A program made the translations under genes and the position numbers. A stretch of DNA of 64,000 bases. Origin: Podarcis filfolensis. Lineage: Eukaryota. The notes under the pieces were generated by a model that made no database searches, had not been told where the DNA came from, and saw nothing but the letters and a program-made list of their open reading frames with translations. Shown one piece after another: positions 3,024 to 58,537 of the stretch; the stretch's first letter is position 1, and each line of letters begins with the position of its first letter. The stretch lies in assembly GCA_964270895.1 (NCBI GenBank), contig OZ185435.1; one strand, written 5' to 3'.

Positions 3024-3993
3024 GCAGAGAGGTAGTTGCTGCTGCAGCCAAATCAGGAAAGTTTATGCTCACTGAGCTGATGCCTATCCTGACGCTAGCA
3101 TAGGCTGCTGAATTCAATGGGGAGACCATCCATGCCACAACCATACATTTGTACTATGCTGGCTGCAGCACCCTCCTGACAAACTTTATGATCACTGCTA
3201 AAGATTATTGCCATTTTTTGTTTTGTTTTGCTCAATCTGGATTTGTTGGCATTTTTTTTTGTAACCAAAATGTACTAAAAGCAAACCATTTGGCTAAGCT
3301 TTGTAATGTGTCCTTATGTGACTTGGGTCGGCGGGACGGCAGATGTGTTATTTATGCAGCAAAAGTTGGAACTGAAGTAAGGCAAAGAAAGAGTCCTAGT
3401 ATACATTATTTATTAGTCCTGGTGCTTTAGAGGTTTTTTTTTATTTAAGTATTTTGTTGCCTTGCATTCAGCTGAATCACATCTGACACTCCATGGGGGA
3501 AAAAATCCCAAAGCAAATTGGTTCTTACAAGGCAGGTTAAAGGTGCTTGTCAGCTTTCTTTATAAAAGTCTTAAAACCAATTAGCTTTTCACAATTCTGA
3601 AAAGAGGTTAGAGTTGCTGTGCTTGCTTAATTTGTTACAGAGGTATATAATTTTTCTTTTTCTTTTAAAAAGCTTAATAATGTTTACATGGTTTCCCTGC
3701 AGATGGCTCGTGATATTTCAAATGTATGCAATATATAGTCTTGCAGATGAGGGGGGCAAGGTAGAAAGAGGAAAGGTAAATGCCTTCTGAACCCAAGTAT
3801 TTCTAAAATGACTGTACATTTCTTCTGTGGAATTCAAGGCAGGGTGTATGTAGTATCCCATCCAGGCACCAACTGGATCAAAGCCTGCTTAGGTTCAGCA
3901 CAATTATTGCATGATATGCCTTCACTTTATAGTCTGAAAGGACATAAGCAAACTAAAATAAATTTAGATCACCCTTTGTTCATTTTGTGTATA

Positions 3994-4232
3994 CAGTGGC
4001 ACCTCTGGTTATGTACTTAATTCATTCTGGAGGCCCGTTCTTAACCTGAAACTGTTCTTAACCTGAAGCACCACTTTAGCTAATGGGGCCTCCCGCTGCT
4101 GCCGTGCGATTTCTGTTCTCATCCTGAAGCAAACCTGAGGTACTGTTTCTGGGTTAGCGGAGTCTGTAACCTGAAGCGCATGTAACCTGAAGCGCATGTA
4201 ACCTGAAGCGTATGTAACCCGAGGTACCGCTC
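3994..4232 (-). mobile_element. Tigger/pogo-like MITE with internal 3x16-bp tandem (GTAACCTGAAGCGCAT)
   Basis: Degenerate CAGTGG(T/C)ACCTC TIRs with TA flanks; reverse homologue of 27140-27365. Confidence 0.85.
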
Positions 4233-13675: not shown

Positions 13676-14092
13676 TGTCAGCGACTGGGCAGAGGAGGAA
13701 TGGTGGAGACTGCCTCCCCATCTTGACCCTTCCAGGGAGGAGGAAGAGGAAGACAGTATAGATTTACAACAGTGGTTTGCGGAGGGTCACAGCTCAGAGG
13801 CAGATGAGGGGGAAAGTTGGGAAGGCAGAACTAGAGCAGCAGCTGGCTAGCATGGTGTCATTAGAAAGCACCCCAGACCCTCAATTTCCCAGAACCTGGC
13901 AAGCCTTAAAAGTAGGAGAGCAAAGAGCTTAAAGACAGAGGGCACGTAGCAGCCCCTGAATGAGGAAGTGGGAAAGATGGGGGTGGAGATTCACTTGGGA
14001 CAATGCCATTATCCAAGAGGACGGTAAGAAGCTTTCCCTTGTCTTTATACTTCCTGGGCAACCAGCCGGTAGCCACTGACAGCATCCTGACA
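13676..14092 (+). mobile_element. Solo LTR (417 bp) carrying a decayed U3 reading frame
   Basis: TGTCA...TGACA termini; perfect 5-bp TSD CCTGG (13671-75, 14093-97). Confidence 0.9.
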
Positions 14093-15359
14093 CCTGGTAA
14101 GCAATCAAGTGACTCACCTGCTGAGATGCTAGTATACCACTTAAGCCTTAGAGCTCTAATTAAAAAACAAAGTAGCCTAAAGTCTGCTCACTACTGGCTT
14201 ACAGGACAATATAAAAAGAAAACAGGTATCTAAATAATTCTAGGTCAGACAATAATTAATAAATCTCAAAGATTACATGCATCTGCCCAGATTCCTCTTG
14301 ATGTTTGCAAGGTATAGATGATACTTGAAATGTGATAGATAGAGTGCTATGTATTGGGGAAATTTGGGCATCGTTCTAGGTACACTAGATGCTTAAAGAG
14401 GTAAATGTTTTATTTCCACACTTACTATTTACCAAGAATGTTTAGGCTGCATCCTCAATCCAATCAAATAAAAACGATATAGAAGAAAAAGACATGAAAT
14501 TGCACCATACAAAGAAAAGATTAAAAACCAAAAAGGTATTGTGCAAAAATTGGAAGTGTAATCAGAATGAGAAAAATAGTGCATTTGGCTTAGCAAGTTA
14601 CATTTAAGGTCTAAGAGGATTTTCCTGAAAACAAATAAACTGGATATTTAACTATATGAAATATTAGAAGTAGAAAGTCTGCGTGGCAGTCAGTTATATC
14701 TCTAGATAATGAAGGTCTGAAATATGTACCCATGAGAGAGAGAAAGATATTGCACATTCTTTGCATCTGACACCATAAAAGGAAATTTGGGGAAAATGAA
14801 CACACCTGGACAGTTCTCTCTTCAGGACATGCATCTGAAAAATAAAACCAAATTGAGAGACCAAAGTTGAGAGCAGAGAGCAGAGTTATTCCAATAATTG
14901 CAGTTAATCATACACCCACCCATCAGCCATTTGTGGGTTGGGGAAGATGAAAAGAAAGCTCCATCCCAAAAAGCAGGTAGAGATCCTGAGTTGTATTCAA
15001 CTAAGTTTTACTCAGAGTAGATCTGCTGAAATTAATGGACCCAAATTTGCCATGCTTATTAATTTCAGTGGGCCATAACTTCTGGAATGCCCACGGGGCA
15101 TGATGTAGTCCTTATGGAGTACCCGAACACACTGCAATGATTTTTTTAAAAAAATCATTAAATAATTGAAAGTGCCTTGGGAAATTGTCATGTTCAGCTT
15201 TAGGGGGAACTGTTGACCCAGAAGGTAGACTGGAAGCAACCAGCCACATCTTCAACTTGAGAAGCTTGGCTGCTTGACAGCCACTTGAAGATGCTGTGTC
15301 CTTAGAGAGTCAAGCTCTCTTTGTCATCGCTACTGCCACCCAGTGGGTGCAATCATATG

Positions 15360-15515
15360 TGATTAAGTGATCTTGGTGGCTACTGGTGCATTTTCCCAAG
15401 TCTTTTTGGCTGTGGCTTCTCCTGGACCAGGATAGCCTTGCTATGGTGATCCACACTTTGGTAACCTCCCATATAGACTACCGTAGCACAATCTCCATGG
15501 AGTTACCCTTGGAAG
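15360..15515 (+). mobile_element. L2 RT-region remnant
   Basis: Decayed SLAMVIHTLVTSHIDY, matching the L2 ATVVHALVTSRLDY motif. Confidence 0.6.
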
Positions 15516-16369
15516 TGCAGGCATGAGAGACAAGATTTGTATATTGTATCAGGAACAATATCAGATGTCAGCAGGGTGCCCATAAAGAAGATCACATGTG
15601 TCGTTTAACATGGACACAGCCAGTGGAAGTGTCAGGAGAGGGGAAGGAGTTGTATTTTGTCAACAGCCACAGTAATGGTGGCAAACTTACGTAGCTTCTC
15701 CAGCAGAGGCAGAAGGGAAGATGACTATCATTTCCACAGCCAGTGCTCCTGAAAATACTAATTGTCCGCAGAGTGACTCAAATATACCAAAAACACAGTG
15801 TACTAATAACTAACTTGTGGAGTTTCAGTAAAGTAAATTAATAACAAAATGAAATTGCCACTGTTCCAAGAAATATGTTCTCATTTTGCAGTTATTTTAG
15901 CTGAGCAATCTTTGGCAAAGGATACAGAGTTTGATAAAGTGATCAACTCCAGGTTTTTTTTGGAAATGAAAGGTGGTTAAAAAAAATTATTAACATCATA
16001 AATGCAACACTTAATATGTGTGGGACTACCCTGGTGAATGTAAATTTGAATACTGAAGACATCTTTGGCATGTGATGTTGGTGCTTTTCTGTTAGTATAG
16101 TTTGCCATACCAAAATAAATATCCCAAGCTCTATAATTGGAAAGATGTATTATTTAAAATGGACATGTTTGAATATATGCCTCACTTCTATTTTAACGAG
16201 ATTTAGACTCCCTTTAGATTTTATATTATCCAGCAAGACTAATGGTGCCCTTTGGTTGTTCCTTTGCTGGTATAAAGTCTGGTTTAAAGACAATAGACAC
16301 CCAGGTTCAACTGGATCCTGTGGAGATAGGTCATCAGGCATGATCCCCCTTCTCCCTCCATGTGTTTAG

Positions 16370-16930
16370 CTTGTACCATTTCACCATAGACATGCTCCGC
16401 ATGAGGCTACCTTTGAAGGTGACTTGAAAACTACAATTAATCCAGAATGTGGCTCCTAGACTGGTGACTGGGAGCAGCCAGCGGGACCATATAACAGTGG
16501 TCCTAAAGGATCTTCACTGGCTCCCAGTATGTTTCCAAGCACAAGTCAAAGTATTGGTGTTGACCTTCAAAGCCCTAAATGGCCTCGGCCTGGTATACCT
16601 GAAGGAGCATCTCTGCCTACATTGTTCAGCACAGACACTGAGGTCCAGGTCTGAGGGCCTTCTGGAGGTTCTCTCCCTGCAAGAAGTGAAATTACAGTGA
16701 TTCGGGAAAATGCCATTTCAGTAGCCATACCCACACCTTGTGGAATGCCTTTCTGGCAGATGCCAAAGAGTTAAACAGCTATAATTTTTTTCATAAACAT
16801 CTGAAGGCAGCCCTGTTTCAGAAAGCTTTTCATGTTTGTTTTCCCCCTGTATTTTTCTTGGAAGCCACCCAGAGTGGCTGGGGCAACCGTCAGGTGGGTG
16901 GGGGTATCAGAAATATGTTATTGCTGTTGT
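16370..16930 (+). mobile_element. L2 LINE 3' fragment
   Basis: LKDLHWLPVCFQAQVKVLVLTFKALNGLG..YLKEHL followed by the L2 3' UTR. Confidence 0.9.
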
Positions 16931-19191
16931 TGTGGATGTGTTCATCATATACTGGGAATGAACTTCCTGCGGTCAGTTTATATCTGGACAGATATATATC
17001 ACTGTCCATTAATACTGCCATTATCTTGCCTTTCTCCATTTTCAAAGTCTTTCCTTCAATTAAAAAACCCTTTATGGGAGTTTGTTCATATTCACCCTTG
17101 GCACCTCTTCTGGTTCCTGTTCTCTTCCAGAGCCCTGACAGTGTCACAATGAGAGGCTTCCCAAGATTCTGCCTGTCCTTTGCATGCTGTTTCAACACTG
17201 CCAGCATGAGTGGAATACGTATTACGGCAATTACACACACTCTTCTTCAGACCTGCCTCCACCTCCCCCACAATAATTTGGCTTCTTTCTTCAATATGAG
17301 GACTTGTTATTGTTTAGAGCTGTAGTTTGGCTTATCCATTTCAGTCTGCAGTAATTTATTTATGAAAGTATTGCTTCATTGGCTCTGACATAACTTTTAT
17401 AATAGATTCCCACCCCCCTGTGATGCTTCTCTGGCATTGTTCATGTTTTGAGATCATATTTTTATTTTTATGTTATGTTATTTTGATTTATTTTACAGGT
17501 AGATATACAGTTATAGATAATTGATTATAGATAATTGATTACTAGCAGTTTGCTGTTGAGGAAAAGGGTATATTAAGAATTATCCTTTTGAGCCATGACT
17601 TTGACCGATACTTTCAAATAAGCATTTTTATTTTCATTATCATACTTTAGACACCAGTATAAATGCAGTTTAAGTAGATCAGAGCTGTGCCTTTGTTGCA
17701 GAGCTAATAATTAGCATGTAGATTCTCCTAATGCTTTTGATAACAGGAGGAACCTTTAAAAAAAATAAAATAAAAAGAAAAGGTGTTTTCAAGGAAGGAC
17801 AAAATATAGATTAGTGTATTTAGGTCACAGCACTGACAACTCAAATTGTTACCCAACAATTGCTGTAAGTATATGGCAGGCCTAGATAGTGGTCTCCCCT
17901 ATTTGTTTGTTCATTAAACAGTAATAAATATTCTGTTCATGTCATGCTAAACAAATTTTAGGAGGAAATCTACATCCATATGCCAGTGCCTAGGCCATTT
18001 CTCAGTCCTGAACCAAGCTCATAGCATCTCCTACTGGGTTTTGAATTTCTTTCCAACTTACTCCAAATGACAGAACTCCAGTGCATTTTTCCTTTTGTTT
18101 CATGGAGGTTCACACAGGAGAGTATTTGACCTCCATATGGTATATTACAAATCCCACTTAACAATTTCATAAATGAAGTCTAGAAATCTGTGAAGCTGGC
18201 CAACTGAACTGAACTGAACTAAGCCACTTACTGACTCAGTTCATGTGTAACAACTAACCATGGTTTGATGTCCTGGCCTGTTAACTTACTGTGGTTCCTA
18301 CAAACCACAGTTTCCTGTATTCAGACAAAATAGGAAACTGCTGCTTAGAACAAACCAGGAATGGAAGATTTAATTCTTAAATGCAAAGGGAAGGGAGAGT
18401 ATGCAAGCTTTAGTGAAGTAATCACTAATGAGCTCAATGGGACTTACACCCAGAGAAGCATGTATAGGATTGCCTCCTTAACTGGAACTTAAATCTGTTG
18501 AAAACAAAATGCTGAAATGCCAAACAGCTATTGGATATGGAAGATCAAGATAAAGTGTATTTAGCTTTGTAGTTCAGGCTTCAAGTGATTATTGCCTTAT
18601 ACATACTATCTAGGGGCTCGTATACCCTGTCATATATGGATCTATGTTTAATATCAGACTGTCATTTTACAACATAAAGCTGACCTGTTGGTTAAGTGGC
18701 CTTAGATTGACATACTACGCAGCTGACTCCAAGATAGTGAAAACTTGACAAGAATCTAGGAGTACAGAATCTAGGAATTTGCCTGGAGCCTTGGGTCTGC
18801 ACAAACTGTTGCCTCGGGTAAACAGGTACTGTTAACTATTTATTGCTTTTAGGCAGTTTTGTTATGCGTTAAGCAAGAGGTTATGAAACTTGGAAAGCTG
18901 ACTCAAGTTACTTTGTAATAATCTTGCATCTATATTTGTAAGAAATGGATATTATTTCCTTAATCTTCCTGTTCATATTCTTCAAGATGAAACTCCCTGC
19001 ATAAAGTTCATCCAAATTTCCCCATAATCACTTAAATACAAGGTGTTAATGGGTGTGGTGCATTGCTTTGAAATCATTTGCTGATCTTTTTTTGGGGGAG
19101 GTGTTTTTTCCAGTCCCATTATTAGAACTTCAGAGCAGATTCACAGTGCTGCTGTGAATGCCAGTTAAAATATAACATCATGTATCCACAG

Positions 19192-19296
19192 TAGGAATGG
19201 AAGGGCCTGTCATTTTTGGTTTTCTCAGTTTCACATTTTAAATTAAATCTTAAATTCTGTTCTCCGCATTTGTTCAGGAATCTGCATTTGTTCTAC

Positions 19297-19339
<43 letters not shown>

Positions 19340-19720
19340 CATCTATCATCTATCTATCTATCTATCTATCTAAAAATCCTAATGAAAATTCATCTTCATT
19401 TTGGTGCAGATTTCTCCTAATAAACACATTTTGTATGCAGTTTTTACAAACGTAAACATTTTTTGCAAAGCAATTACCCCCAATATAATGCATTTTTGTG
19501 TGTTATTTTCTCAGATGTATTCAATTTTTATTCACACTTTGCCCTGATATATGTGTTTATGAAAACATTTTTGGTTGGTTGGAGGACAGCCTCACGAAAT
19601 TCAGAAAAGTGTGCATTTCAAACGATGGCTGTTCTTCAGTTCTGATACTGTTTGGGAAAGTGCAGATTTGCTAGATTCACCTTTAGACGCAAACTGAATT
19701 GAATTCCTCCCCCATCCGTA
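19192..19720 (-). mobile_element. hAT-type non-autonomous element (TAGG termini) containing an (ATCT)n microsatellite
   Basis: Termini TAGGAATGG / CCCATCCGTA; perfect 8-bp TSD ATCCACAG (19184-91, 19721-28); related copies at 47965 and 54739. Confidence 0.88.
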
Positions 19721-20388
19721 ATCCACAGGAGCTCTTTGCAGTCATCCCTGATCACTGTGGATGCCAACTGGATCAATAGTCTTCCACTTAGAGAAATAAC
19801 CTCTGTGGCTTCTTCAAGGGTGATCCCATGCCTTGCATCCTGAAGTCTGTCGGATCCTGCAGCTTGGAGCAATGGCACATTCATGTCATATGCACCCAAA
19901 GGAATATTTCCAAACAACTTCTGTTATTGGAGTGGAGTAGTTGGAAATCACACCTGATACAGTGATATCAATAAAAATGGATTGACTCCTTCTTACTGTT
20001 TCAGCAGCTTGTTTTCTCGGACTCGTTCTTTTTGGATGTAATCTCCTTGGGACTTTCTTGAGATTAGAAGAATCATAATATTTATATAATTATTTATTTT
20101 TAAATATTACTATAGAATTTTACAGGTGGGATCTATAACAAAAAATAAAAACAAATGTGGTATGGAGAGCTCATGTTTAGGTTTCTAGTCAGCCAGCCAG
20201 CCAGCCAGCCAGCCATGTCTTCTTCAGTTACACTTCATTCTGGTCCCCATTCCTCCATGGTTTTCCATTTCGCCATCAGCACTCTCTGACCAATGAGCTT
20301 GGTTAGTTGACCTTGAGTTTTGAGTTTCTCCCTGCCTTTGAGGTTCCCTGCCCCCACTATCAAACATTATTTGTGCTTGTCCTGAACA

Positions 20389-20890
20389 TGTCAGGACAGC
20401 TGCCCCATAGTTTAATTCTTTATTGACAAAGTATGAACTTACAGTAGCTCCTGAGGTGCACTAAATCTGTGTGTGTGTGTGTGTGTGCGCGCACACACAC
20501 ACACGTGCGCACGCAAACACACACACACCTGGTGGCTAGGCAACTGATGCCCCTCCCCTGGCTTGTGCTCTGACCTGAATGGTTGGAGCAATGGGTGGCC
20601 ATGCCTACACCCTCATCTGACGGTGTGAATGCAAGCATCCTGCAACTTCTACATGCAAGTTGTCACTGTGCCTGCCTTTTCAAGCCCCTCCTGTTTCTAG
20701 GGGACAGTGGGGGAGAGGACAGAAGGGATCCTGCTGCCCCCTCCCTTCAGGCACCATCTCTCAGCTCCTGGTGCTGAGTCCTTCCTGCAGCTCCAGCTCC
20801 TCTCCCACAGCCTGCACCTCCTCCCTTGTCTCCGACTGCTCAGACCCCTCCCCACCCTCCAGCTCTGGCTCCTGTCTCTTGGGAGGCACA
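20389..20890 (-). mobile_element. Solo LTR (about 500 bp) carrying a decayed U3 reading frame
   Basis: Minus-strand end GTCCTGACA with AATAAA at 20419-24; candidate TSD GAACA/GAACC; the right boundary is less certain. Confidence 0.7.
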
Positions 20891-21151
20891 GAACCCCTGC
20901 CATCTTCCATGTCTTCTGAGTAATTTTCCGTCTTCTTCTGCATGGTTACATAGACAATATTCAGAAATGGTGGCTGTGCTGCACTAGGTCTCTTCTTTCC
21001 TGAAGTTTATCTATTTGGCACCTTTCTGTCTCTCAGGGACATGTGCCAGGCATTGCTTGCTATGGAAGCAAGTGCACATGTGCAGAAACAAAATTTCATT
21101 CTCAGTTGCTGTCAAAATTCCGCCCTCAGTTTCCATTCCATTCCATTCATT

Positions 21152-21441
21152 GAGAGCCAGTGTGGTGTAGTGGTTAAGAATGGTAGATTCGTAATCTGGG
21201 GAACCGGGTTCGTGTCTCCGCTCCTCCACATGCAGCTGCTGGGTGACCTTGGGCTAGTCACACTTCTCTGAAGTCTCTCAACCCCACTCACCTCACAGAG
21301 TATTTGTTGTGGGGCAGGAAGGGAAAGGAGAATGTTAGCCGCTTTGAGACTCCTTCGGGTAGTGATAAAGCGGGATATCAAATCCAAACTCCTCTTCCTC
21401 CTCCTCTTCTTCTTCTTCTTCTTCTTCTTCTTCTTCTCTTC
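21152..21441 (+). mobile_element. tRNA/CORE SINE with (CTT)n tail (Squam3-like)
   Basis: A/B boxes (GTGGTGTAGTGG; GGTTCGTGTC), CORE-like GGGTGACCTTGGGCTAGTCAC, (CTT)n tail; family name from recall. Confidence 0.8.
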
Positions 21442-22067
21442 TGAGATTTCCAAGTAATTCCCTGTGTTCTTCTGCATGGTTACGTAAGTAATATTTGGAA
21501 ATGCCCAGTGGACCTCTTCCTTCCTAGACGATATATATTTGACCCCCTTCAGTCTCTCAGGAATATGTGCCATGTAGTCTTGTGGAAGCAAGTACACTTA
21601 TACGGAAAACAAAATTTCACTCTCAATCGTCTGTTGGGAATTTCTGCAATCTTCCCAGGAGCTGCTTTGTCCCGTAGCACAGCAATATAGTGAAAACACA
21701 ACAAAACACAATAGAAGGAAAGGGTTCTTTTGTTTTTGTTTTAACAGAGCTGGAGCACAAATCAGATCATAGGTTTTGAATAAACCAGCTGTCGTCAATT
21801 CACTCCAACATTCCAGCCACAGTGGAGAGTTTCAAAGAACTGTTTCAGGAGTGCTTGTGGGTAACAGGGTTTTGAGGGTGGAGTTAGGGGGTATATAACT
21901 GAGAATCTTTTCCGGTATATAACTGAGAATCTTTTCACAGTGCAGAGTCACAGAAAGAGTTACGCTCCCTTTTGAAAGAAGCGCTGTAAAGTACATTAAA
22001 CTGGCTCACAAAGGAAAGATGCCTAGAACAGGAAGAAACATGGAGGCTGAGGAGAAAGACACAGCCT

Positions 22068-22397
22068 TGTCACTGAGAATCAGGTGCCTTCTTTATAGGT
22101 GGGATCAGACACCCCCCCCCAATGGAGCATGTGTGTGCATTGGGCCAAAGAGTCGCAAGGAGTGAGCTTGTCCCACGTCATCTCTAGAAGCTTAGTGAGA
22201 GGAGCAGGTCAACTGGCGGGACATCTTTGTAGCTTCCATTCAGTTACGAACCTCTTACCTTACTCTTAAACCTGTGAATTGTGACTTCTGGACTTAGCTT
22301 GCTACTGAGTCTGTACCCCAATTAGTCTGAATAAAGATCTCTTCCTTCCTTACAAATAAAAGTCACTGTCATGTTTTTTTGGGAAGGGAGTGTGACA
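22068..22397 (+). mobile_element. Solo LTR (330 bp)
   Basis: TGTCAC...GTGACA termini; AATAAA at 22330 and 22355; flanks GCCT/TCCT are an imperfect TSD. Confidence 0.65.
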
Positions 22398-22469
22398 TCC
22401 TGAAGGGTTTGCACAAAGCGTACATTGAGGTTACATTTTACTGAGCAATCATTTGTTGATTTGTATACA

Positions 22470-22814
22470 GTCTAAACCACAGACCCCAGGGCTTGCCGAT
22501 CAGAAGGTCGGCGGTTTGAATCCCTGCGACGGGGTGAGCTCCCGTTGCTCGGTCCCTGCTCCTGCCAACCTAGCAGTTCAAAAGCATGTCAAAGTGCAAG
22601 TAGATAAATAGGTACTGCTCAGGCGGGAAGGTAAACGGCGTTTCCATGCACTGTTCTGGTTTTGCCAGAAGCAGCTTAGTCATGCTGGCCACATAACTTG
22701 TAAAAACTATCTGTGGACAAACGTCGGCTCCCTCGGCCAGTAAAGCAGATGAGCGCAGCAACCCCAGAGTTGGTCGCGACTGGACTTAACTGTCAGGGGT
22801 CCTTTACCTTTTTT
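22470..22814 (+). mobile_element. Sauria SINE (5'-clipped)
   Basis: Colinear with 10957-11338; GGGGTCCTTTACCTTT tail. Confidence 0.9.
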
Positions 22815-23946
22815 AAAAAAACAACAATGAGCTTTCATCCTGATTTGCTTGCTGGGTGTTTCTGCATCTTCCTGTTAATCATCTGTTAATCATACCACAC
22901 TTTTCAGTGTATTTTCCTGTCACCTTCCTAACAGCAAAAAAGTAAGGTTTTTAAATTTATTTTTTTAAAATAGGTTTTTGTGTGTGTGTGTGTGTGTGTG
23001 TGTCTGTGAGTGATAGGGCACTTTAATCCACTTTAATTGCACAAACCTAACTTTCCACGATGTGGTTGAATCCCTCCTGAAAAATATTGACAGTCTGGAG
23101 GTGACCCAAGCTACTTTCTCTCCAGCTCAGTGCCTCCATCTGTAAAATAGGGTTAATAGTACTGAACTACCTTTTAAGGGAATTAAACAAAAATCCAAAT
23201 GAATTAGTGCTGCATTTATTTCGCTAATCTTGACTTTTACACAAAGAATGTTTATAGTCAAAGCAAAAGAGCATTTCTGGAGTCTTGTTTCTTTAAGACA
23301 CAGTACACCGTCCTTTCAGAATGCAAATATTCGGTGGATTTAATAGTTTGCAGTTCGATTCCGCCGTTTGCTTTGTAACCTGCCACTCGCCGTGACAAAG
23401 ATAATCGCATTTGGCAGCCTTCTCTTGGTTGAGCCAGGCAAATTGAATTAATATACTGCAGAGATTAAATGTTTTAGCAATTGCTGTTGCTTGCAGAATT
23501 GGGAGAGGGAGAGCAAGCAGGTTTTGGAGCACAAGGAGCTTACTTCCTGTCCTGCCATATGGTGCTCTCCCTGAGAGAGAAGGTTTGATCTTTGGCTTCT
23601 CACCACATCAAATTGATTACTAAGAAGAAGTGGGGTGGGGTGGGGACTGCAAGCATGCTAAGTGCTGTTTCATTCCAGGCTCCTTTGCAACCGCTAGTCA
23701 TTGTCTTAGCAGGGCAGCCCATTAAACCTGTGTGCAGAACGGCTTCTGAAGGACTTGCCCTTTGCAGCCTCTTTCAGTGTCGCTCATGAAGTTGTGCGTT
23801 GCTTTGAATCAATGGGCCTGTAACTCATCTTGCATCTCTCTTACAAACTCATTGGTTAACAGAAGCAGAGCTCAGGTGTTTTCTGCCCACTGCTAAGAAC
23901 TGAAAAAGAAAGGGGCGGTTGTTTTGGAAACGACAGTCTGATTAGG

Positions 23947-24050
23947 TTATTCCAGAGGGGTAACCATGTTAGTCAGTTGCAGAAAAAACAACAGAGTATT
24001 GTGTGATGCCTTTATTCTGGCAGAGCTCATTTTGTCAGATGCATGAAATC
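23947..24050 (-). mobile_element. Penelope-like terminal-repeat remnant
   Basis: TTCCAGAGGGGTAACCATGTTAGTCAGTTGCAG...TCAGATGCATG resembles the reptile PLE terminus as I recall it. Confidence 0.5.
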
Positions 24051-24344
24051 ACCCTTTGGCAGAGGGTGGCCTTCAACTAAGTTTTTACTCAGAGTAGACC
24101 ACCGATTGAAATTATTGGCCGTGACTTAATAATGTGTATTGATTTCAGTAGGTCTACATACCCTCCAACATTTCTCCAATGAAAATAGGGGCATCATATT
24201 CAATGAAGATGATGATGATGATTTTATTATAGTTCTATGTGATAGTTTTTTATGTTAAACTTTTCAATCTCTTTTGTGATGAGATTGTGTACTGTATGCT
24301 TTTTATTTTTGGTTTATTGACTGTAATGAATTCATAGAATCAAT

Positions 24345-24649
24345 TGATCTTTGGACAGAGATAGTCTGGCCACAGTGGTGTTTGTTTTGGTCCTCCAGTT
24401 GGATTGCTGGAGTGGGTCATTCATGGCACTGCCTTTGGAGACAAACTGGAAGCTTCAGTTGGGGAAGAATGCAGAGGTCATAGTTATGACTGGAACTGCC
24501 AGGTTTATTGTACCTGGTATACCAATTTTATAATTGGTGTATCAGGAAGTTTTTTAATGTTTGACATTTTACTTTGTTTTTGTATGCACTGTAGGCTGCC
24601 CGTAGTGGCTGGGGAAACCTAGCTTGATGTGTGGGGTCTAAAAGGTTAC

Positions 24650-24690
<41 letters not shown>
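24345..24690 (+). mobile_element. Degraded L2 remnants ending in an (ATT)n tail
   Basis: DSLATVV...LPLETNWKLQL motif, L2 3' UTR, (ATT)n at about 24648-24690. Confidence 0.65.
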
Positions 24691-24692
<2 letters not shown>

Positions 24693-25624
24693 GCTCTGCA
24701 TCAATGCAAAGTGTCCATTATTATCTTTAATAAAGCCATAGATAGTTTGGGATGTAGATTCAAAAAGGAGCATTTCTTCCCATTGCAATGGGCCCATAAC
24801 TTCTACTGAGATCCCCTGAGTGCTTCCATTAATAGAGGTGCTGTATTCAGGAACAAGGGAGAGAGCTTTCTGAGTAGTGGCACCTCAGTTATGGAATGCC
24901 CTCCCTTAACAGTCTCACATGATACCTGTGAAACATTTTGGCCTCAGGCAAAAACATCTGCATTTACCCAGGCATTCTAATATGTTGTAAATCCTACTTT
25001 CATTTTCAAGGATTTTGTCTGCTCTATTATTTATATCATGATATAAATTGGTTGTATGCTGCCCTTAAATCCAAATAGTATAGACATGTTTTAAATAAAT
25101 GAAACAGGTGCTTTTTATTCTCCTTAATAGTGGTTGGCAGGAGATGCCTTTCCTACTTATGAAGTAGTAATTAAATGCCTACTTGATGCCACTAAGCTAT
25201 GTCTTGCCTAGTTATGGAGGTTATCTAAGGTCCCTACTCTCTCTGTTAGCTATGGGACTTTGCAATTATGAGTAAATTAACTGAACAGATCCTAGTAGCA
25301 GGAGGACAAATAAACAACAACTCTGCTTCCTTGAATGTTTGTTACTTTGGTTTCATATACTGTACAGTACTAATATAAACAAGCAGACATTTCTCAAGCC
25401 ACAAACTGATATATTGCAGTTATGGTCCTTTAATATTTGCCAGCTTTTTCACAAATGTATGTTACGGAATGTTGGAATGGGGTAGGGGAGGAAATGTTTT
25501 GTGCAGTGCCAACAATCTAGAAAGACCTAATGACCCACCCATTTAGTAGAGATCTCCTTCATCTCTGCTTGCTATATTTTGACTGTGCAATGGGTTTTTT
25601 TAAAAATAAAAAAACCAGATCACT

Positions 25625-25768
25625 TAGAATCATAGAGTTGGAAGGAATCCTGAGGATCATCTAGTCCAACCCCCTACAATGCAGGAATGTGCAGCTGCCC
25701 CATACGGGGATCAAACCTGCAACCTTGGTATTATCAGCACCATGTTTTAGCCAGCTGAGCTATCCAGG
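25625..25768 (-). mobile_element. tRNA-Ile-headed, CR1-tailed SINE
   Basis: Reverse complement CCTGGATAGCTCAGCTGGCTAAAACATGGTGCTGATAATACCAAGGTTGCAGGTTTGATCCCCGTATGGG aligns to vertebrate tRNA-Ile, then a CR1 tail. Confidence 0.82.
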
Positions 25769-26954
25769 CTTAAAAGGCTTATTAACAGGTTATTGGTGAT
25801 GATTGAGACATGGAGCCTCCATGTTCATGGGCAGCATATCCCTGGTGATCAGATGCTGGGATGAAAGAACAATTCAATGTCCTGGTTGTCTGCTTCCCAG
25901 AAACATCTGCTGTTCCTGTGTGTGTGTGTGTGTGTGTGTGTACGTGCGCATGCATGCATGCATGCATGCACGCACGCACGCACGCACGCTCTTGATAGTG
26001 AGTCTTAAAATGGACCCTATTCATTTCATGTAAAACAGAAATAAAATGAGCAGGTGAGTACAGGGCTCCTGCACCTTTAATAATAAACTGCACCTGGTGA
26101 AATTTCGTCTTCTACACAACTATTAAAGGTGCAGGAGCCCTGTCATCTTTTCCAACCTGAACAGAAATTAACCCCAGGGAACAGGATGCTCTACAAAAAC
26201 AAGCAAACAAATCCCCCTCTAGGATGCTTAGATTAAACTGCAGAATCAGCAAGAATTTTCCAACAACTTGCTCCTTATCAACCCAAATTCCTGCCTAAAA
26301 TAACCCATAGCCCAGCCCGTTATGTATAGCTATTTAAGATCAGGGAGGCTCCTGTAGAAGGACTAATCCCACTTGCAGTAACTGTGTCAGGGAAGTCACA
26401 GAATGCCCTGTACAATCAGCATCCTGCTGAGGATTTCTTGCCTCTGTGGGTGAATCATCTGGCGATAAGGTGAAGAAATCACATGCCTGGATGGGTTATA
26501 AAACAGCAGTTCCACGTGGCTGGTGAGATGTTCTGTCAGGCTTATGAGATTTTGGAACTTAGTCCATTGGCAAGCTGCCTTCAGCAGTATAGACAGGGCA
26601 TGTGGGAGCAATGCTCTCCTGCTATACACGAATGTCTGCTGCAATCATTATCTAGTATAACCATCAGGTGTCAGTCACAAATCCACACACCCCTTGCTCC
26701 TGCAGAGCCACTCTACATTTGAAAACTAGAGGAGACACACAAAGTGGTCGTTTAAGCAATGCATTTCCATTTAACACTTGTGTGTTGATAACCCAGCTGT
26801 TGAGAGTGTTTTTCAAAAAACAAACATATCACATGATCGTCTGCTGAGTTGTCCAAAGCTTGTTTAAAAAATATCTATCTGTAAATACAGAGATTGATAC
26901 AGAAATTTTCATGGTGTTTTAACCAGTAGTGCAGTAGCAAATTCAGAAGTGCAG

Positions 26955-27717
26955 TGTCAGGGCTGGTTCAGCACAGAAATTCAAAAGTGAGCAGTAAGGT
27001 TGATTCTTTATTCAGAGACACAAAACACAGCAGAGAACTTGGTGGGCAGAACTAGCGCAATGAAGCAGTTGCCAGAACTGTGGATCTGAGCCTCAGACTT
27101 CATCCTAAAATTTCTCCCGGGTGAGCTGCCTTCCCAATACAGTGGTACCTCGGGTTACATACGCTTCAGGTTACAGACTCCGCTAACCCAGAAATAGTAC
27201 CTTGGGTTAAGAACTTTTCTTCAGGATGAGAACAGAAATCATGTGGCGGCGGTGCAGCAGTAGCAGGAGGCCCCATTAGCTAAAGTGGTGTCTCAGGTTA
27301 AGAACAGTTTCAGGTTAAGAATGGACCTCCAGAACGAATTAAGTTCTTAACCCGAGGTACCACTGTAGTAGCAAACTCCTTCATGGAGGGGCTGTCTGGG
27401 CCTTTTCTTCTGCTGCATGCAATGCCCTCCTCGTTCTTCAGGACAGAGGAGGAGGGGAGGGGGAAACTGTGGAAGTGGCAGATTGCTGGGGATCTGTTGC
27501 TGCCTCAGCCTCCTCCTCCTCAGCTGTCTCACTCTCAATTAAACCTATTGCTTGCTCAGCCTCCAACCTGTCTGCCCCCTTTCTTCCTCTGACTTGGCTT
27601 CTGAATCCCACCACCATTCTCCTGACTCGGAGCCTTCCCACTCTGAAGCTTCCCTGTGGGGTGGGTTCCCTGGCTGTAGCCTCCCACCATTCCCCCTTGT
27701 CTAGCCAGTCCCTGATA
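26955..27717 (-). mobile_element. Solo LTR with nested MITE and decayed U3 reading frame
   Basis: Termini TGTCAG / CTGATA; TSD TGCAG/TGCAA; minus-strand AATAAA at 27007-12. Confidence 0.82.
27140..27365 (+). mobile_element. Tigger/pogo-like MITE (226 bp)
   Basis: Perfect 18-bp TIR CAGTGGTACCTCGGGTTA; TA TSD (27138-39, 27366-67). Confidence 0.93.
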
Positions 27718-28064
27718 TGCAAGATCCATTCATACAAATCACAGCCACGCCCCTCTCACTGTTATGCTTCCTTATAAGACTTTATAATCCACTAAGATTA
27801 TACAGTAATCTTATAATTATACAATAAGAGCAATTAAGGATGCATGTGCTACTATTTTTTGTGCGTGTGCATAGGCAAATGATTTGGAGAGCTCCAGTCT
27901 CTTCTTTCAGAGCGAATGACATTTTCCTTGAAGTTCCATCTTACATAACAGAACTTGGAACATCCTTTGTTTTCAGTGTTCCCAAATGCTTAGCTTTGGA
28001 GCATCCAGAACAACAACTGCATTATGTTCTTCCCATGTGCCTTCTCAAGAGTGGCCCAAGGAGC

Positions 28065-28470
28065 TGTTGGAAACATGCCTGGGAAGGCCCCCAACTTCCC
28101 AAGTCTTCGGGGCGTCTCTCCAGTGGTCCTCCTTGGCTGTAAATCTCCCTCAGTCCAGAGAGACCGGTGATAAGCGACCCCTCTCTCCTGAGAGGAGCAC
28201 ACTCGTCTTCTGGCGTATCGTTGCAGAAGAAAGACTCAATCAGTAGCTCTAAAACTACTTTATTTGCAGTCTATATACAAAGACTCCATCAGCACGTCTG
28301 TGCTCTTTCAGCATCAGTACAGAACAGCAACACTTTCAGAAGTGAAACTAACTTCCAACAGTCCTCAGACTTCCTGTCTCATGCTCACTCAGACACTCAC
28401 ATGATGTACACAAAACATAGTACAACAGTACCACTTGCTGGAGCAGCTTGGATAGATAAAAATCCTAACA
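28065..28470 (-). mobile_element. Solo LTR (406 bp)
   Basis: TGTT...AACA termini; perfect 5-bp TSD GGAGC (28060-64, 28471-75); minus-strand AATAAA at 28259-64 and TATATA at about 28272. Confidence 0.88.
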
Positions 28471-29578
28471 GGAGCCAGTCCTCAATGGCTGACTCACCTT
28501 TCACTCTGATTGGCTTGAATCAGCACAAAGGGGGAGACGGCTCCTTGTCAGTGACTGGAAAGATCCACTTTCATGCTGACTGGGTGGTTCTAGGGTGCTA
28601 GAGACAGGGACCTTGCTGAGTCTTTGATCCCCTTTGATGACTGGGCCACCACACCTCTGGTTTTAACAAACGAAAGACTGTGTTTGGAAGAAGTGGTCTA
28701 CTTTCATTATTTCTGGTGCTCGCAGCAGATTATTGGGGGAAAGTTAAAAGAATAGAAAATGAGTTGAAAGAAAAACCTAAAATGGCAATTCACAGGACAT
28801 ATCTTGGATATGCTTACTTGGAAGTTGTTTCCACTGTGTCCAGTGGAACCAGCCTGAGATGTTTTGCTGCTGTAGGCAAAATGCCCTGATGCCACACCCC
28901 ACAGAACCTGCCAGTGCAACTACACAGGTGCCTTTGGCTGTGCCACACTGCTGCCGTAATGCAGTGACAAGGGTGCAGTGGTGCGAGTGAAGCCTGGGGG
29001 GTGGGGTGGGGAGGTTGGCAGCAGCTCAGTGGCTGGGGTGGGGAGAAGGTAGGGCAAGGGTCGGATCTACTACCTGATGCAAATGGCTTCACCTTGTCTT
29101 ATTGATGAATGGCGCTCACCCTCTGATAAGTTTTAAGGTTGCTGCTTAGTGATGCAGTTCCTAAGCTGCAATCTTACGTACAATTATTATTTTAATAGAA
29201 TTTTAGCTTGCCGAGTGTATACTCTCTTATAGAGAGTAAGCCCTTTTGAAATTACAGGGACTTCTGAATAAACATGCATTATTATTAATAATATCATCAT
29301 TATCATTGCGTAGGATTGCACTGCTAGCATGTCGATGTGTTATCATGCATATAGTGCTGGACTAGAAATCCTTACTTGGCTTTGCTGTGCAGCTTCCTGG
29401 AATCTGTTGAGCAAGTAATTAGCATTTAGACTAACCTACCTGTAGTGCACATAAAATGGGATCGCCCCAGGGATGCTATTGTGAGCTCCCTGGAGCAAAG
29501 GTGGCATGCAAATGAGATAGACAAATAAAATAACATACATCCCTGGCTTACTTATTTGAGGTCAGGTAGTGGGGATGT

Positions 29579-30040
29579 AAGAACATAAGAAGAGCCTGCT
29601 GGATGAGGCCAATGGCCCATCTTAGTCCTGCATTCTGTTCTCCTGATTGCCAACCACATGCCTGTGTGAAACGTGCAAGCAGGACCTGAAGGCAAGAGCA
29701 CTTTCCCCTCCTGTGGTTTCCAGCAACTCGTATTCAGAAGCATTACTACCTTTGACCATGGAAGCAAAGCATAGTCATCACAGCTAGCAACCATTGGTTG
29801 TCTTATCCTTCATGAATTTGTCTAATCCTCTTTTAAAGGTGCTGGTTATCACTGCCTTATGCGGAAGCAAGACCCATAGTTTGACTATGTGCTGCGTGAA
29901 GAAGTACGTCCTTCAAAATTCAGCTTCATTAGATATCCAAAAGTTCTAGTGTTATGAAAGAGAGAGAAATAAAACTTTTCTCTATCCACTTTCTCCATGC
30001 CTTGCATAATTTTATAAACTTTTATTGTGTCACCCTTTAC
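29579..30040 (-). mobile_element. CR1 LINE 3' fragment
   Basis: TAAGAACATAAGAA tail (reverse complement TTCTTATG repeats), then the CR1 3' UTR and ORF2 end. Confidence 0.8.
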
Positions 30041-30045
30041 TCACC

Positions 30046-30330
30046 TCTCAGGACCCGGAGTCAGGAGTAGGTCAGCAAGAAACACCTGGTGTCAGTGAAG
30101 TTAACTCTAGATTCAAAGAAACCGAAACAGTGCTGGCCTGGTGATCACAGTAACTCTTCCCAGTGGGTCCCTGCTTTCCCACCACTCCCTAAGGCACTTC
30201 CCTCAATTCCTTCCCCAGCATCCTAAGGCTCCATTGTCTCATCTCTCTCTGCTCTGCCCTCTTCATTCCATGTTCTGGGAGACCAGAAGAGGAGCAGAGC
30301 TGGCCACAGCAGGAGGGGGGGACTCCCTGA
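30046..30330 (-). mobile_element. Partial LTR (3' part) with decayed U3 reading frame
   Basis: Minus-strand end CTCCGGGTCCTGAGA (decayed ...CCTGACA); SPRT...RAEQ...SLRMLGK remnant; no TSD found. Confidence 0.6.
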
Positions 30331-30364
30331 GGCACGTCCACCACATGTGATAAAAGGTTCCTTC

Positions 30365-30680
30365 TTTTTCTTTACATTTCCAGCATTTATTATCATGTCT
30401 GATACATTTTTGCTAACTTCACTGGTGTTAAATACCACCTGTACATCATTTTCATCAGATTTTCTCTTAATACATTACAAGCTGTAAACTGGATTCCTTT
30501 TTTCCACAATTTCTCCCAATCCTCCATCAAGATATTGTGCCCCACATCCCTGGCCCATTCAATCATTACCAATTTCACTTGTTCATCTTTCGTATGCCAT
30601 TCCAGCAATAATTTATACATCTTAGATAGGTTTTTTTTGTTTTTGTATCTAGTAATTCCGTTTCCAATTTGGATTTCTCT
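30365..30680 (-). mobile_element. L1-clade ORF2 fragment
   Basis: YKLLLEWHTKDEQVK...[20 protein letters not shown] is homologous to the L1 at 55701-57780. Confidence 0.85.
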
Positions 30681-30689
30681 ATTTGAAAA

Positions 30690-30885
30690 CCAATTTTCCT
30701 ATCCATTTTAACTCTACAATGTTCTCTTTGAGGTGAGACAACCAGAAATGTACACAGTATTCCAAATGCAGTTGCGCCATAGATTTGTATATTGGCGTTA
30801 TGATTCTTATTATGGCAGTTTTATTTTCAGTTCCTTTCCCAATGATCCCTAGAATGGATCTTGCCCTTTTTACACCTGCCACACT
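30690..30885 (-). mobile_element. CR1 RT fragment
   Basis: KRARSILGII...IYKSMAQLHLEYCVHFW. Confidence 0.8.
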
Positions 30886-43478: not shown

Positions 43479-45739
43479 GCACCTGTTCTTAAAATATTAA
43501 TGGACATTCATTAAAGTTTACCAAACAAGTAGAAATATTCAACTTTGACATGGAGAAAAAGCACAGTATGTTCATTCGAATATAAGGAGAACATTAGGTA
43601 CTTCTGCTATTCAGATGAATGTTCTTTAGAATACTTCGTAATTACTAAAGAATTACTTCTTTGGAATACTCATCTGAATAGCAGAAGTACCTAATGTTTC
43701 TCATTATATTCAGCTGAGCACACAGCCCTTTCTCTACTTTGCAAACCTGAATATTTCTACTTTCATGGTAAATTGTAATGAACAAGAGGTGCAGTCCAGC
43801 CAAAATGAAGCACTTCAAAGTCCATTGCTTTCACTGGAAAAGACTTGTGCATATGCTCAATATCCTGTGGTTGTCGGTGGGATTTAAAAGTGTCCTTAAC
43901 TTTGAATTATTCCCACAAAGCATCACACTGTATAACTGTTTTCCCTGTGGGTGCTTAATCAGACAGAATTAAGACTGTGTTGTTCAGAATTTTTCTTACG
44001 TCAGAGTGAAGCAGTTCTTCCGTAATAGCCCTGAATATCCCACAGCAGCTGTGGGGGACCCTTTGTTCCTCCAGAAGTTTCTGAACTACAACTCCCATCA
44101 TCCCTGGCCACTGGCCATGCTTCCTGGGCTTGCTGGGCATTGTAGTTCAGCAACATCTGGAAGGCCAACAGTTCCCCCGTCCTATCGTATGAGGGGTTTC
44201 ATTCAATGTGGTAGGGTACCCTGGATGAATACCCATGTGGCTACTGTTTTCTGATGTCTCCCATGTGGTTCTTAAAACATAAGAACATAGGACCATAGGA
44301 AGCTGCCTAATACTGAGTCAGACCATCAGTCCATGTAACTCCCTGTTGCTTACCCCATCTGGTAGTGGCTCTGCATGGTTTACCTACTACTGAATTTTGG
44401 CAATTTTGGCCCTTTCCCTTGAGATCCAGAACTACCCTTCTTTGATAGCAAAAGAAGGTAAGAGACCATGCATGTTGTGTTGGGTGGGCAGGATTGCATT
44501 GAAATAACCCATAGACCATATTAGCACGGTTCTTACTACATTAACATGGTGCCCTCCAGATGTTGTATGACTACAGTTTCCATCCTCCACAGCCATTATG
44601 GCCAATGGTCAAAAATGATGGGAATTGGCATCAAACATCATTTGGAGAGGACCAGGTTGGCTATCTTGTCCGAAGTCATATGTGATGAGCAAACAGAGAG
44701 ATGTGCTTGCATATGTGAACCGGCGCTTTGTTCATTAGCATTGCTCATGTATAGTAAAGCTATGCAACCAGGTATTTTCAGAATCAGTCCTTTAAAACCC
44801 TAAGATGAAAGGAAGGCTAAGGAGTAATTCTGGAGTAACTCTGTCCTCTTTCCAGGTGGTCCGTCTCACCTGGTGGTCTGTGTTCAGGGACTCTGTCTAC
44901 TATACCATTTCTGTGATCGTGCTTATCGCGGTAAGTTTCCATTTTTGACCTGCTCCTCCATGAAGTGGTGAAGGGCCTGAATTTGAGAAGTGCTGTTGTC
45001 CCCAGAAAGTTCTTGTTTGTTTTAGGATTTCTTATGAAAAATCAGTAGATGAGGTCACTTATGATGCTTAAAACTAAATTTAAAACTAAATTTAAAAGCT
45101 CAAAAAACTACTGAGCTGTGAATCTAGCTGCTGTTCCCATTCTCAAATGGAACTGGAAGTCCTCCCACTTATGATGTTACCTAGGAGAGTGCAGTGTTCA
45201 AGCCCCATGCAATCCATCATTGCTGGCTCCATGTTTGAGAGGGCCCTGGGCAAGATGGTCTCTGGTGGCACTTTGATTAACCCAGCTGACAGTGGTAGAG
45301 GGAGCAGCAATGCTTCAAGCAGCTCTGGCTGGCTGGGTCTAATTGCCATTCTCACAATGTTCCCAGAGCAGGGAACTGCATTCTGTTGTAGGGGAGAACT
45401 GCATGCAAATGCAAATACATGAACAAAGTCTTAACTCCCCCCCCCCAGTGAAAAACCAATATTAAAAACATATCTCCAGATTCCAACAGGAGTGGGGAAG
45501 ACATTGGGAGACCAGTTTAGAAATGGTTGAGTAAAGTAACCTGCAATGTTGCTACTCAAAACTACAGCCTTCCCAGGGCCACTTTTTATTTAAAAAATAA
45601 TACATACGTCAAGTAGAATAGGAACATTGCCACCCGACCCCACCCCCACTCACCATACCCCCCCTCCACCTCTTTCCCCCTTTTCTTTCTAATGTAACAC
45701 TAAATGTCTCAACAAGTGAAACTGATCTGTAGAAAATGT

Positions 45740-49200: not shown

Positions 49201-50310
49201 ATGCACCATGTATATTACATGGCTTTTATACCTGTGTAATATACACAATTGTTGCATGCATACCTTTTGTTTGTATGTGTACCCATAAAAAGCATAAGTC
49301 ATGATCCAGCTGAAGCATATGTACTTTTAGACCCCATTGCATTTAGCGGGAGATATATAGGCATGCTCTTAGTTCTGCACTTGAAAATCAATGCTGTGTA
49401 AAATTGATTAATTTTGGCTGGATCACGGCCAAAGTGTATTGCATTCATCATCTAGTGATGTTCCCTGGGTGGTCTTTGGCAAATATCTGTGTCTCAACCT
49501 ACCCTTTTCACAGTGGTAACAAGCACTGGAAAGTGCCATAGAAAAGATTGCTGGAAGTTGACTATCTACCATTAGAATGTTAGCATTTTTCTCCCTCTTT
49601 CCATCTAGGTACAATGTGAAGATGCAGAACTTCTTTACTATCAAAAGCATGAATGTTGGCAATGGCAACACTGTCAACAGTGAACTGGAAGATGGTAATG
49701 AATCTTTTGACATTAGCTGTGATGACCCTTCATTGCCATTGCTGTGGAAAGGTAAGGCTAAGCAGACAGGAGCTGGACAAAAGCTTGACGAGAAATATTT
49801 TTCTCTGATAGTGTTTCTCCATACATTGACAACTGGCACCTGCAACAAAATGTTGTGATGGGGAACACTCCTCTTTTCTGCCCCAAGTCATCCAGCCATG
49901 CTCTCCTTCATGACAGGGCATTCTGTTCCATTTTTATGTCCTGGTCCTTGCCCAAGAGCAAATCACCATTCTGTGGCAACTGAGTATGCTCAGTTTTCAA
50001 CTGGGCTGTTTTGATGTGGGTGGTTGTGGGCGTGTGAGAGAGAAACAAAATAAAAAAAAATCCTTCCAGTAGCACCTTAGTGACCAACTAAGTTTGTTAT
50101 TGGTATGAGCTTTTGTGTGCATGCACACTTCTTCACATACTAGGTATATGTATATACCTTCATATACTAGGTATTTGAAGAGGTGTGCATGCACACAAAA
50201 GCTCATACCAATAACAAACTTAGTTGGTCACTAAGGTGCTACTGGAAGGAATTTTTTTATTTTGTTTCAACTACGGCAGACCAACACGGTTACCTACCTG
50301 TAACTAGAAC

Positions 50311-56300: not shown

Positions 56301-58537
56301 TTGCAATAAGTATTCTTGCTGCTGTTGTAGCATACATAAAGAAAGTTCTATCCTTCTTTGGCACCAATTGGCCGACCATGCCCAGGAGAAAGGCCTCTGG
56401 TTTCTTCAGAAAGGTATATTTAAATACCTTTTTCATTTCGTTATAGATCATCTCCCAGAAAGCCTTAATCCTTGGGCATGTCCACCAAAGGTGAAAGAAT
56501 GTACCTTCAGTCTCTTTACATTTCCAACATTTATTATCGGGCAAATGATAAATTTTCGCAAGCTTGACTGGTGTCATGTACCACCTGTATATCATTTTCA
56601 TTATATTCTCTCTTAAGGCATTACATGCCGTGAACTTCATACCTGTGGTCCATAACTGTTCCCAGTCAGCCATCATAATGTTGTGTCCAACATCTTGTGC
56701 CCATTTAATCATAACAGATTTCACCTTTTCATCCTGAGTATTCCATTTCAATAGCAAGTTATACATTCTTGACAAATTCTTAGTTTTGGAATCTAACAGT
56801 TCTGTTTCCAATTTTGATTTTTCCACCTGGAAGGCAATTTTTTTATCCAAATTATATGCCTCCATTATCTGATAATAGTGAAGCCAATCTCGCACTCTAT
56901 TTTTTAATTTTTCAAAACTCTGCAGTTTTAATCTGTCTCCCTCTTGTTCCAAAATTTCCCAATATTTCGGCCATTTGGCCATTTTCAAGCAAATCCTTAT
57001 ATCTTATCCAAACATTAAACAGTGCTTTTCTGACAATATGGTTTTTAAACGCTTTATGTGCTTTGACCTTATCATACCACAAATATGCATGCCACCCAAA
57101 AATGTTGTTAAAACCTTCTAAATCCAGCACATCAGTGTTCTCAAGAAGCATCCATTCTCTCAGCCAGCAAAAAGCGGCTGATTCATAATAAAGTTTTAAG
57201 TCTGGCAGGGCAAATCCACCTCTTTCCTTAGCGTCAGTTAATATCTTAAATTTTATTCGGGGTTTCTTGCCCTGCCAGACAAATCTAGAGATATCTCTCT
57301 GCCACTTCTTGGAACACTCCATTTTATCCAAAATTTGCAATGTTTGAAACAAAAACAACATCCTTGGCAATACATTCATCTTTATTGCAGCAATTCGGCC
57401 TAGCAATGATAGCTTCAGGTTTGACCATATTTCTAAATCCTTTTTCACTTCCATCCAACATTTTTCATAGTTATCCTTAAACAGATTCACATTCTTGGCA
57501 GTCATGTTAACCCCTAGATATTTCACTTTCTTAACCAGTGTTAGCCCTGTCTCCTTCTGAAACCTTTCTCTCTCTATCACTGTTAAATTTTCCTCTAAGA
57601 CTTTAGTTTTCATCTTATTCAACTTAAATCCCGCTACTTGTCCAAATTCTTGAATCAGTTCCAGTACTCTTTTGGTACTAGATTCTGGCCCCTGTAATGT
57701 CAATACCAAATCATCGGCAAATGCTTTCAGTTTGTACTGTTTAGCTCCGACTTGTATACCTTTAACCATTTGGTCCCTTCCCAGCTCATATATTCTGGTT
57801 TAACCCTCTGAGGGGAGATTTTACACTGGAGGTGAACCTTTGGACCTCTGGATGTTGAACTGCAGAACTGCAACTCCCATCAGCCCCTACAAGCATGGGC
57901 AATGGTGAGGGGTGATGGGAGTTGTAGTTCAGACTTATAGGTTCCCCACACTGTCTTTAACCAGCTTCCTGAAGATTAAGAGTACCATACATAAGATGCA
58001 GCCTTCAAGCACCTACAGCAGTCATTGTGCTCGATCCAGACTGAGTGAGTTGTACTTAATTCCCCACTGAAATTAATGGTGCTTCATGCAGGCATGACTA
58101 GTGCTGCCTCCAGGTTTTGGAGGCCCTTGGGCAAGACACCCTCCAGGGGCACTCCTCTATTAGTGAACATAGCTCTTCACTGCAGCAGATTAAGGTTGAC
58201 CCTGGGATACCTGGCTATGTTGTCCCTTCATAGGCATGACTAACTTTTCAATGCAGCCTGGGTTCAGTTAACTTAGACTTCATACCCACCAACCTATGTG
58301 CAGCACAAAGGTGTCGTTTTTCTCAGTCCGGAGTCGTTCATGCTAATCCTCAACATGCTGCTTTCAGTTTTGATTAATTCGACATCTTACCTTCCACAAA
58401 GTTACTTGATACACATTTGAAAACCCATCCCTTGATTAGGTTATCCACACCTTTTGCTTCCTACACATGCCTCAGGTGAATGAAGGAGGTGGTGATCTTG
58501 GTATATGCCCACTCACCATGTCATTGGGCAGGTGTAG

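Follow-up and report, generated by a model that had tools for sequence, protein, structure and literature searches.

The U3 regions of lizard Gypsy chromovirus LTRs probably encode the C-terminal tail of Pol

A stretch of 64,000 nucleotides from Podarcis filfolensis (GenBank assembly GCA_964270895.1, contig OZ185435.1), here called the window, contains four long terminal repeats (LTRs), termed A to D, each carrying remnants of a reading frame. All four belong to repeated families, for which a first look at the 1.5-Gb genome gave 2601 (A), 327 (B), 374 (C) and 1447 (D) candidates. These families are LTRs of Gypsy chromoviruses, probably of the Tf1/sushi type. With a probability of about 0.85 to 0.9, the frame is the C-terminal tail of Pol/integrase, ~100-135 codons that are coded within the U3 (unique 3') region. 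This arrangement is observed for A, C and a copy related to B, and we infer it for D.

Four LTRs and their parent elements

An initial annotation had described four solo LTRs, and the translations it gave are present where it placed them. A and C are indeed solo LTRs with 5-bp target-site duplications (TSDs), whereas B has lost its 5' end. D is interrupted by a piece that, judged from its own translation, resembles a long interspersed nuclear element (LINE). LTR A is ~60 bp below the typical copy length of its family (460-480 bp), and B is short of ~85-100 nt at its 5' end relative to its own family. The last motif of C is split by a 218-bp miniature inverted-repeat transposable element (MITE).

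Table 1. Positions of LTRs, tail remnants, inserts and FxGF motifs (in the window, unless a locus is named)
Feature	Position	Strand	Basis or remark
Solo LTR A, Gypsy chromovirus family	13676..14092	+	TG..CA ends, perfect 5-bp TSD, family copies
Probable integrase C-terminal tail remnant in A, decayed	13677..13960	+	Carries a single frameshift and a single premature stop
LTR B, 5' end missing	20389..20900	-	Family comparison; related locus L261 with integrase upstream
Probable tail remnant in B	about 20600-20900	-	
Solo LTR C	26955..27717	-	5-bp TSD with one mismatch; family; L256 with integrase and polypurine tract upstream
Probable tail remnant in C	27368-27716	-	
TA-flanked MITE in basic end of C tail	27150..27367	.	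Matches window 3992-4190 at 82%
3' part of LTR D, basic end of putative tail	30046..30330	-	Family; peptide related to C
LINE-like piece severing 5' half of D	30331..30705	.	74% match to window 56475-56849
FxGF motifs	L235: 2524-2625 and 2383-2487	-	Chromodomain without first cage aromatic
FxGF motif	L230: 1309-1413	-	Chromodomain without first cage aromatic
FxGF motif	L237: 7271-7507	+	Chromodomain without first cage aromatic

Copies with internal sequence reveal where the frame comes from. When the DNA preceding LTR starts was scanned for purine runs, 18 places emerged, six of which have one common polypurine tract. At five of these six (four independent), a family-A LTR is preceded by the end of a Gypsy integrase and a chromodomain. 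In the duplicated pair L185/L186 and in L189, the chromodomain and the LTR are in one frame, with private stops only, and this is also the frame of the remnant in A. L188 and L184 have private frameshifts; in L188 the second half of the chromodomain is in the LTR frame. A second scan gave 53 matches, and among the 30 loci read, five have integrase upstream. These include a family-C LTR (L256, frameshifted, with polypurine tract and integrase) and a B-related LTR (L261), but no family-D LTR. For A and C, the internal sequence seen is the integrase end only.

The parents are Gypsy elements, with no open reading frame (ORF) between pol and the LTR. The proposal that A and C begin in the same phase was borne out, as was, for A, C and the B-related copy, the proposal that the frame enters the LTR from the internal region, upstream of the polypurine tract. 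In the A and C tails, the first base of the LTR is at codon position 3, and the displayed tails start with V/L-R at the LTR edge, where there is no start codon.

Other searches were less productive. An earlier purine pattern gave three matches, none with integrase upstream. Longer proteins carrying the family-C tail numbered zero among 972 candidates, and a genome protein search with the A tail yielded a longest frame of 245 codons among 150 scored, with no parent. Among young endogenous retrovirus (ERV) and copia elements (14 loci), no comparable tail was found on long ORFs. Loci L190-L197 and L202 include several young ERV families whose pol frames are long and open, some with env-like frames as well. 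They also include a copia family, the LTRs of which are identical (L193); all are unrelated to the tail.

Several further observations concern the repeats themselves. The first 30-40 bases of the family-A LTR are duplicated just upstream, with a purine-tract-like join, in L187, L126 and L271. A single family-C LTR has been amplified many times on contig C19 (L055, L058-L061, L063-L067, L069, L070); because the flank is common to all, these matches were counted as one insertion. This contig, possibly the W chromosome, is also rich in the best-preserved Gypsy and ERV matches. Palindromic repeats at window positions 50042-50268 and 43507-43782 are probably MITEs.

The frame in old and young families

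Copies of each family were read in register with their own letters (30 A, 20 B, 9 C and 20 D, those of C being one per insertion out of 20 fetched). The first stop common to at least half of the copies is at codon 98 (A), 126 (B), 123 (C) or 136 (D), and exceptions to an open frame are confined to one stop column in B (53%) and one in C (50%). Of the other two sense frames, one or both are closed by codon 31 in each family, and neither stays open past codon 81. Openness by itself says little, as it arises by chance in 1.5-4% of cases at fixed phase. Each of the six pairings of the A to D peptides shows more similarity than local shuffles do (p 0.003-0.013). In frame-blind DNA alignments of A to D, third codon positions are the most divergent in 6/6 pairs, significantly so for C-D (p=0.005), C-B (p=0.026) and C-A (p=0.049). 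This test replaced a protein-guided between-family comparison of nonsynonymous to synonymous divergence (dN/dS), which was set aside because it is circular and saturated. The frame is coding and was constrained at the protein level, and, as had been suggested, it lies in U3 and runs from acidic to basic. A Pfam scan of the A and C tails gave no match.

The motifs on which the initial annotation relied fared less well. It had placed RRSxRL, likened to an HMGN motif, in all four LTRs as a conserved feature. The exact form is present in 0/30 A, 5/20 B, 0/9 C and 1/20 D copies, and neither family A nor the young sister families described below have it. A looser form, S-[LHF]-[RK]-LL, is found in three B, two C and ten D copies and in no A copy, and an unbroken SPRTRR-type motif in six A, six B, three C and no D copies. 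Most stops had been attributed to CpG deamination. Six stops were listed in the window copies, one of which is read as the normal end of A and one as out of frame in D; the remaining four are premature, in frame and near the motif, and a CpG-type origin fits three of them. Family-wide, however, a strict rule finds the signature in only 28 of 140 premature stops.

Younger sister families, found by searching with the integrase of such parents, preserve the complete arrangement. An unbroken frame runs from integrase to 74-109 codons into the 3' LTR at 15 of 26 sister loci, and the LTR again begins at codon position 3, like that of A and C. At the remaining loci the frame is broken, deleted or stopped earlier, or the pattern had no match. 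The frames reach 1345 codons, and most LTR pairs are 97-99.5% identical. Pfam places protease, reverse transcriptase, RNase H, integrase, SH3 and Chromo (PF00385) domains in a single frame in two of them. The elements have TG..CA LTR ends and a polypurine tract, and TSDs are exact in three of six elements checked, plus one further element. In one sister family, the 5' LTR is followed by an 11-nt site complementary to the LTR around position 307, close to the frame stop at 331. This self-priming match is present in five of six sister elements, and in L248 both sides have changed together.

In divergent pairs, the sister tails have a dN/dS of 0.32-0.52 (12 pairs compared, one of them saturated), and shifted frames of the same tails give 0.61-1.16. 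No gap occurs across the 109-codon tails at a synonymous divergence (dS) of 0.3-0.8. At synonymous sites the tail has diverged less than the integrase core (0.44 versus 0.55, and 0.78 versus 1.78), which suggests constraint at the DNA level. Layout and phase are common to the young tails and A to D: an acidic part is followed by a Ser/Pro part and then a basic part.

In one family that retains the chromodomain cage (L206-L215, L227), an acidic Trp-Trp motif precedes the purine tract, whereas A, C and D carry it within the LTR. This difference suggests that the LTR edge has moved along the frame.

The initial annotation expected that standard annotation of transposable elements would not name the protein. 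Sister-family tails are already part of Podarcis polyproteins in UniRef, although they are unnamed there. A Podarcis muralis flippase model in UniRef (P0003) also ends in ~46 residues of a young tail in the Pol frame, which is probably a gene-prediction artefact on an LTR and possibly a case of exonisation.

Origin and possible role of the tail

The Pol frame would run from the integrase chromodomain across the polypurine tract into the U3 of the 3' LTR. Because reverse transcription puts U3 into both LTRs, each solo LTR left by recombination would retain the frame without its upstream part, and this remnant would then decay. In the sister families, the self-priming site sets the predicted start of transcription close to where the frame ends; the frame would therefore be U3-coded, and only its copy in the 3' LTR would be translated, within Pol.

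Several observations weigh against this explanation. No unbroken parent was found for A to D, and for D none of any kind. Three of the six between-family pairs are not significant in the third-position test, and neither are the within-family tests (third positions, p=0.066; indels, p=0.54), as is expected because copies decay after insertion. Within families A and C, dN/dS in the Pol frame is also not below that of one shifted frame. The young tails are not detectably homologous to those of A to D (p 0.05-0.95), so that the sister dN/dS values support the architecture rather than A to D themselves. The young tails vary among sister families, as a mere spacer might, and they are far less constrained than the integrase core, which has a dN/dS of 0.04-0.09 in divergent pairs.

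That the frame arose by chance in purine-rich LTR DNA can be dismissed. Shuffles do contain an open frame of this length in some sense frame in 4-10% of cases, but they do not account for in-frame continuity with the chromodomain, the identical phase across families or the third-position bias, and the unbroken integrase-to-LTR frames of the sister loci refute this explanation. The initial annotation had favored an accessory protein, with nef and sag as precedents. It might be expressed separately, through a dedicated or a spliced RNA, or be released from Pol by the element's protease. A constrained frame in U3 would suit such a protein, and cleavage of the tail from integrase is compatible with the sequence. 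The frame is nevertheless continuous with the chromodomain integrase of Gypsy Pol, with no shared stop between them; this continuity, the missing start codon at the LTR edge, the predicted transcript start near the frame's end and the lack of an ORF between pol and the LTR make a separate protein improbable.

With the frame assigned to Pol, the main rival concerns what the tail does. Pol might enter the LTR while the tail need only stay open and soluble, its DNA being shaped by promoter needs. The modest dN/dS of the tails, their reduced synonymous divergence, the failure of tails from different families to align and the stops of two related elements, L243 and L244, at or just past the LTR edge are all consistent with such a near-neutral spacer. 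On the other hand, ending the frame with a stop codon would be simpler than keeping 100 codons open, and the spacer does not readily explain the absence of indels, the recurring order of acidic, Ser/Pro and basic parts, or the Trp-Trp motif found on either side of the purine tract. We consider a spacer a minority possibility, whereas by analogy with CRM group A and Ty1/Ty5 a role of the tail in tethering or nuclear import is reasonably likely. The tail is presumably made as protein and may be disordered. Its Arg-rich end might serve as a nuclear localization signal (NLS) or contact nucleosomes or DNA, its acidic-aromatic stretches might be docking sites for host factors, and the tail as a whole would likely help to steer the choice of insertion site. 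As an overall explanation, a Pol tail coded in U3, likely disordered and aiding nuclear entry and chromatin docking, has a high probability.

The region before the LTR offers candidate docking motifs. Among 57 chromodomain loci compared, which are not independent, 29 have one or two acidic-FxGF motifs between the chromodomain and the purine tract. All 28 FxGF loci with a readable first cage position lack an aromatic residue there, and the aromatic cage residue is kept at 25 of 26 readable loci without FxGF, including most A and C parents. The motif has the parts of the TND-interacting type, namely a helix (from sequence pattern only), an acidic S/T linker and FxGF. In an integrase tree of local elements, FxGF loci cluster in a single group of weak support that also includes two caged elements. 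This grouping leaves room for no more than one or two events in which the cage was lost and FxGF gained, and co-evolution of the two is thus not claimed. The FxGF/TND-interacting motif is absent from the Pol frame of A to D; an FxGF seen in 13/20 B copies was rejected because it is in a shifted frame in the displayed copies.

A docking prediction of the FxGF motif on the lizard LEDGF domain gave a weak score, 0.40 versus 0.00 for the best control, with at least 89% contact agreement between runs and a partner pLDDT (predicted local distance difference test) of at least 60. The mark used was reached by 51/78 solved and 2/108 mismatched pairs in a calibration that does not cover peptides, and scores of 0.60 or less include only five solved pairs and all four passing mismatches. 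LEDGF-domain complexes of like kind are already solved, and the predicted score may be explained by these look-alikes. The host PSIP1 exon is identical to that of Podarcis muralis. FxGF-type motifs were found by pattern in seven among 150 remote matches, and the named chromodomain matches looked up are all from Podarcis muralis.

A more speculative and rather doubtful extension is that the integrase tail is an exchangeable targeting module of lizard chromoviruses. One lineage would have swapped the methyl-lysine cage for an LEDGF/p75 or HRP2 tether by FxGF mimicry, with the U3-coded Arg-rich end gripping the nucleosome. If so, the module's evolution would be preserved in fossil form in thousands of solo LTRs. 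With their FxGF motifs, the young families are a candidate case, open to testing, of convergence on the LEDGF tether by a vertebrate retrotransposon. A literature search, with subscription papers outside it, found no retrotransposon described as having an FxGF motif.

A Pol tail in U3 explains the coding look of abundant lizard solo LTRs, which can mislead gene prediction. It would also mean that most of U3 doubles as regulatory DNA and protein code. The search found no squamate description of such a tail; subscription papers and Repbase/Dfam, which may already note the overlap, were outside it.

Comparison with known systems

Published systems are compared here as described in the available portions of the papers cited. 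The lizard elements match Ty3/Gypsy chromoviruses in the PR-RT-RNaseH-IN order of two sister elements, in a C-terminal integrase chromodomain in sister Pol and upstream of the A, C and B-related LTRs, and in their TG..CA LTRs, polypurine tract and short TSDs. The sister families also have a self-priming site instead of a tRNA site, as described for Tf1/sushi elements (PMC6317226). With the vertebrate V-clade of that group they have in common domain order, chromodomain, self-priming and TGTYA-type LTR termini, whereas the available text of those descriptions does not mention a U3-coded tail of 75-135 codons (PMC6317226, PMC3601003).

HIV integrase uses the LEDGF/p75 or HRP2 tether. TND-interacting motifs bind LEDGF/p75 and HRP2 (PMC9987994, PMC6877644), and their parts, a hydrophobic helix-like stretch, an acidic Ser/Thr linker and FxGF, occur once or twice in young sister families. 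In those families the motifs sit before the LTR, and docking gives a weak prediction of binding to LEDGF. A TND review names lentiviral integrases as hijackers, and the string "transpos" is nowhere in its available text. Likeness to the RRSARL motif of HMGN proteins (PMC13347269) is limited to the RRSxRL of some B and D copies, with none in A or the young families.

The targeting domains of Ty1 and Ty5 are not known to be LTR-coded. Short C-terminal integrase motifs of these elements tether integration to a host factor, and the Ty1 motif lies in the linker of a bipartite NLS; unlike the lizard tail, which is known from sequence alone, they belong to Copia elements with a host partner (PMC7459421).

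HIV nef and MMTV sag are separate retroviral genes with their own mRNAs. Their ORFs overlap U3 likewise, whereas the lizard tail is part of Pol, in a Gypsy element rather than a retrovirus. Because the frame is continuous with integrase, these genes are not suitable precedents, and plant CRM group A fits instead (PMC3059260). Read-through into the LTR is thus already known in plants, where the CRM group A polyprotein extends into the 3' LTR as in the lizard families. In the plant elements a CR motif replaces the chromodomain, whereas the lizard elements keep the chromodomain and add the tail after it (PMC3059260). The lizard elements work like CRM group A without being members of it. With them, Pol read-through into the 3' LTR reaches beyond plant centromeric elements to vertebrate chromoviruses of a lineage in which the chromodomain is retained.

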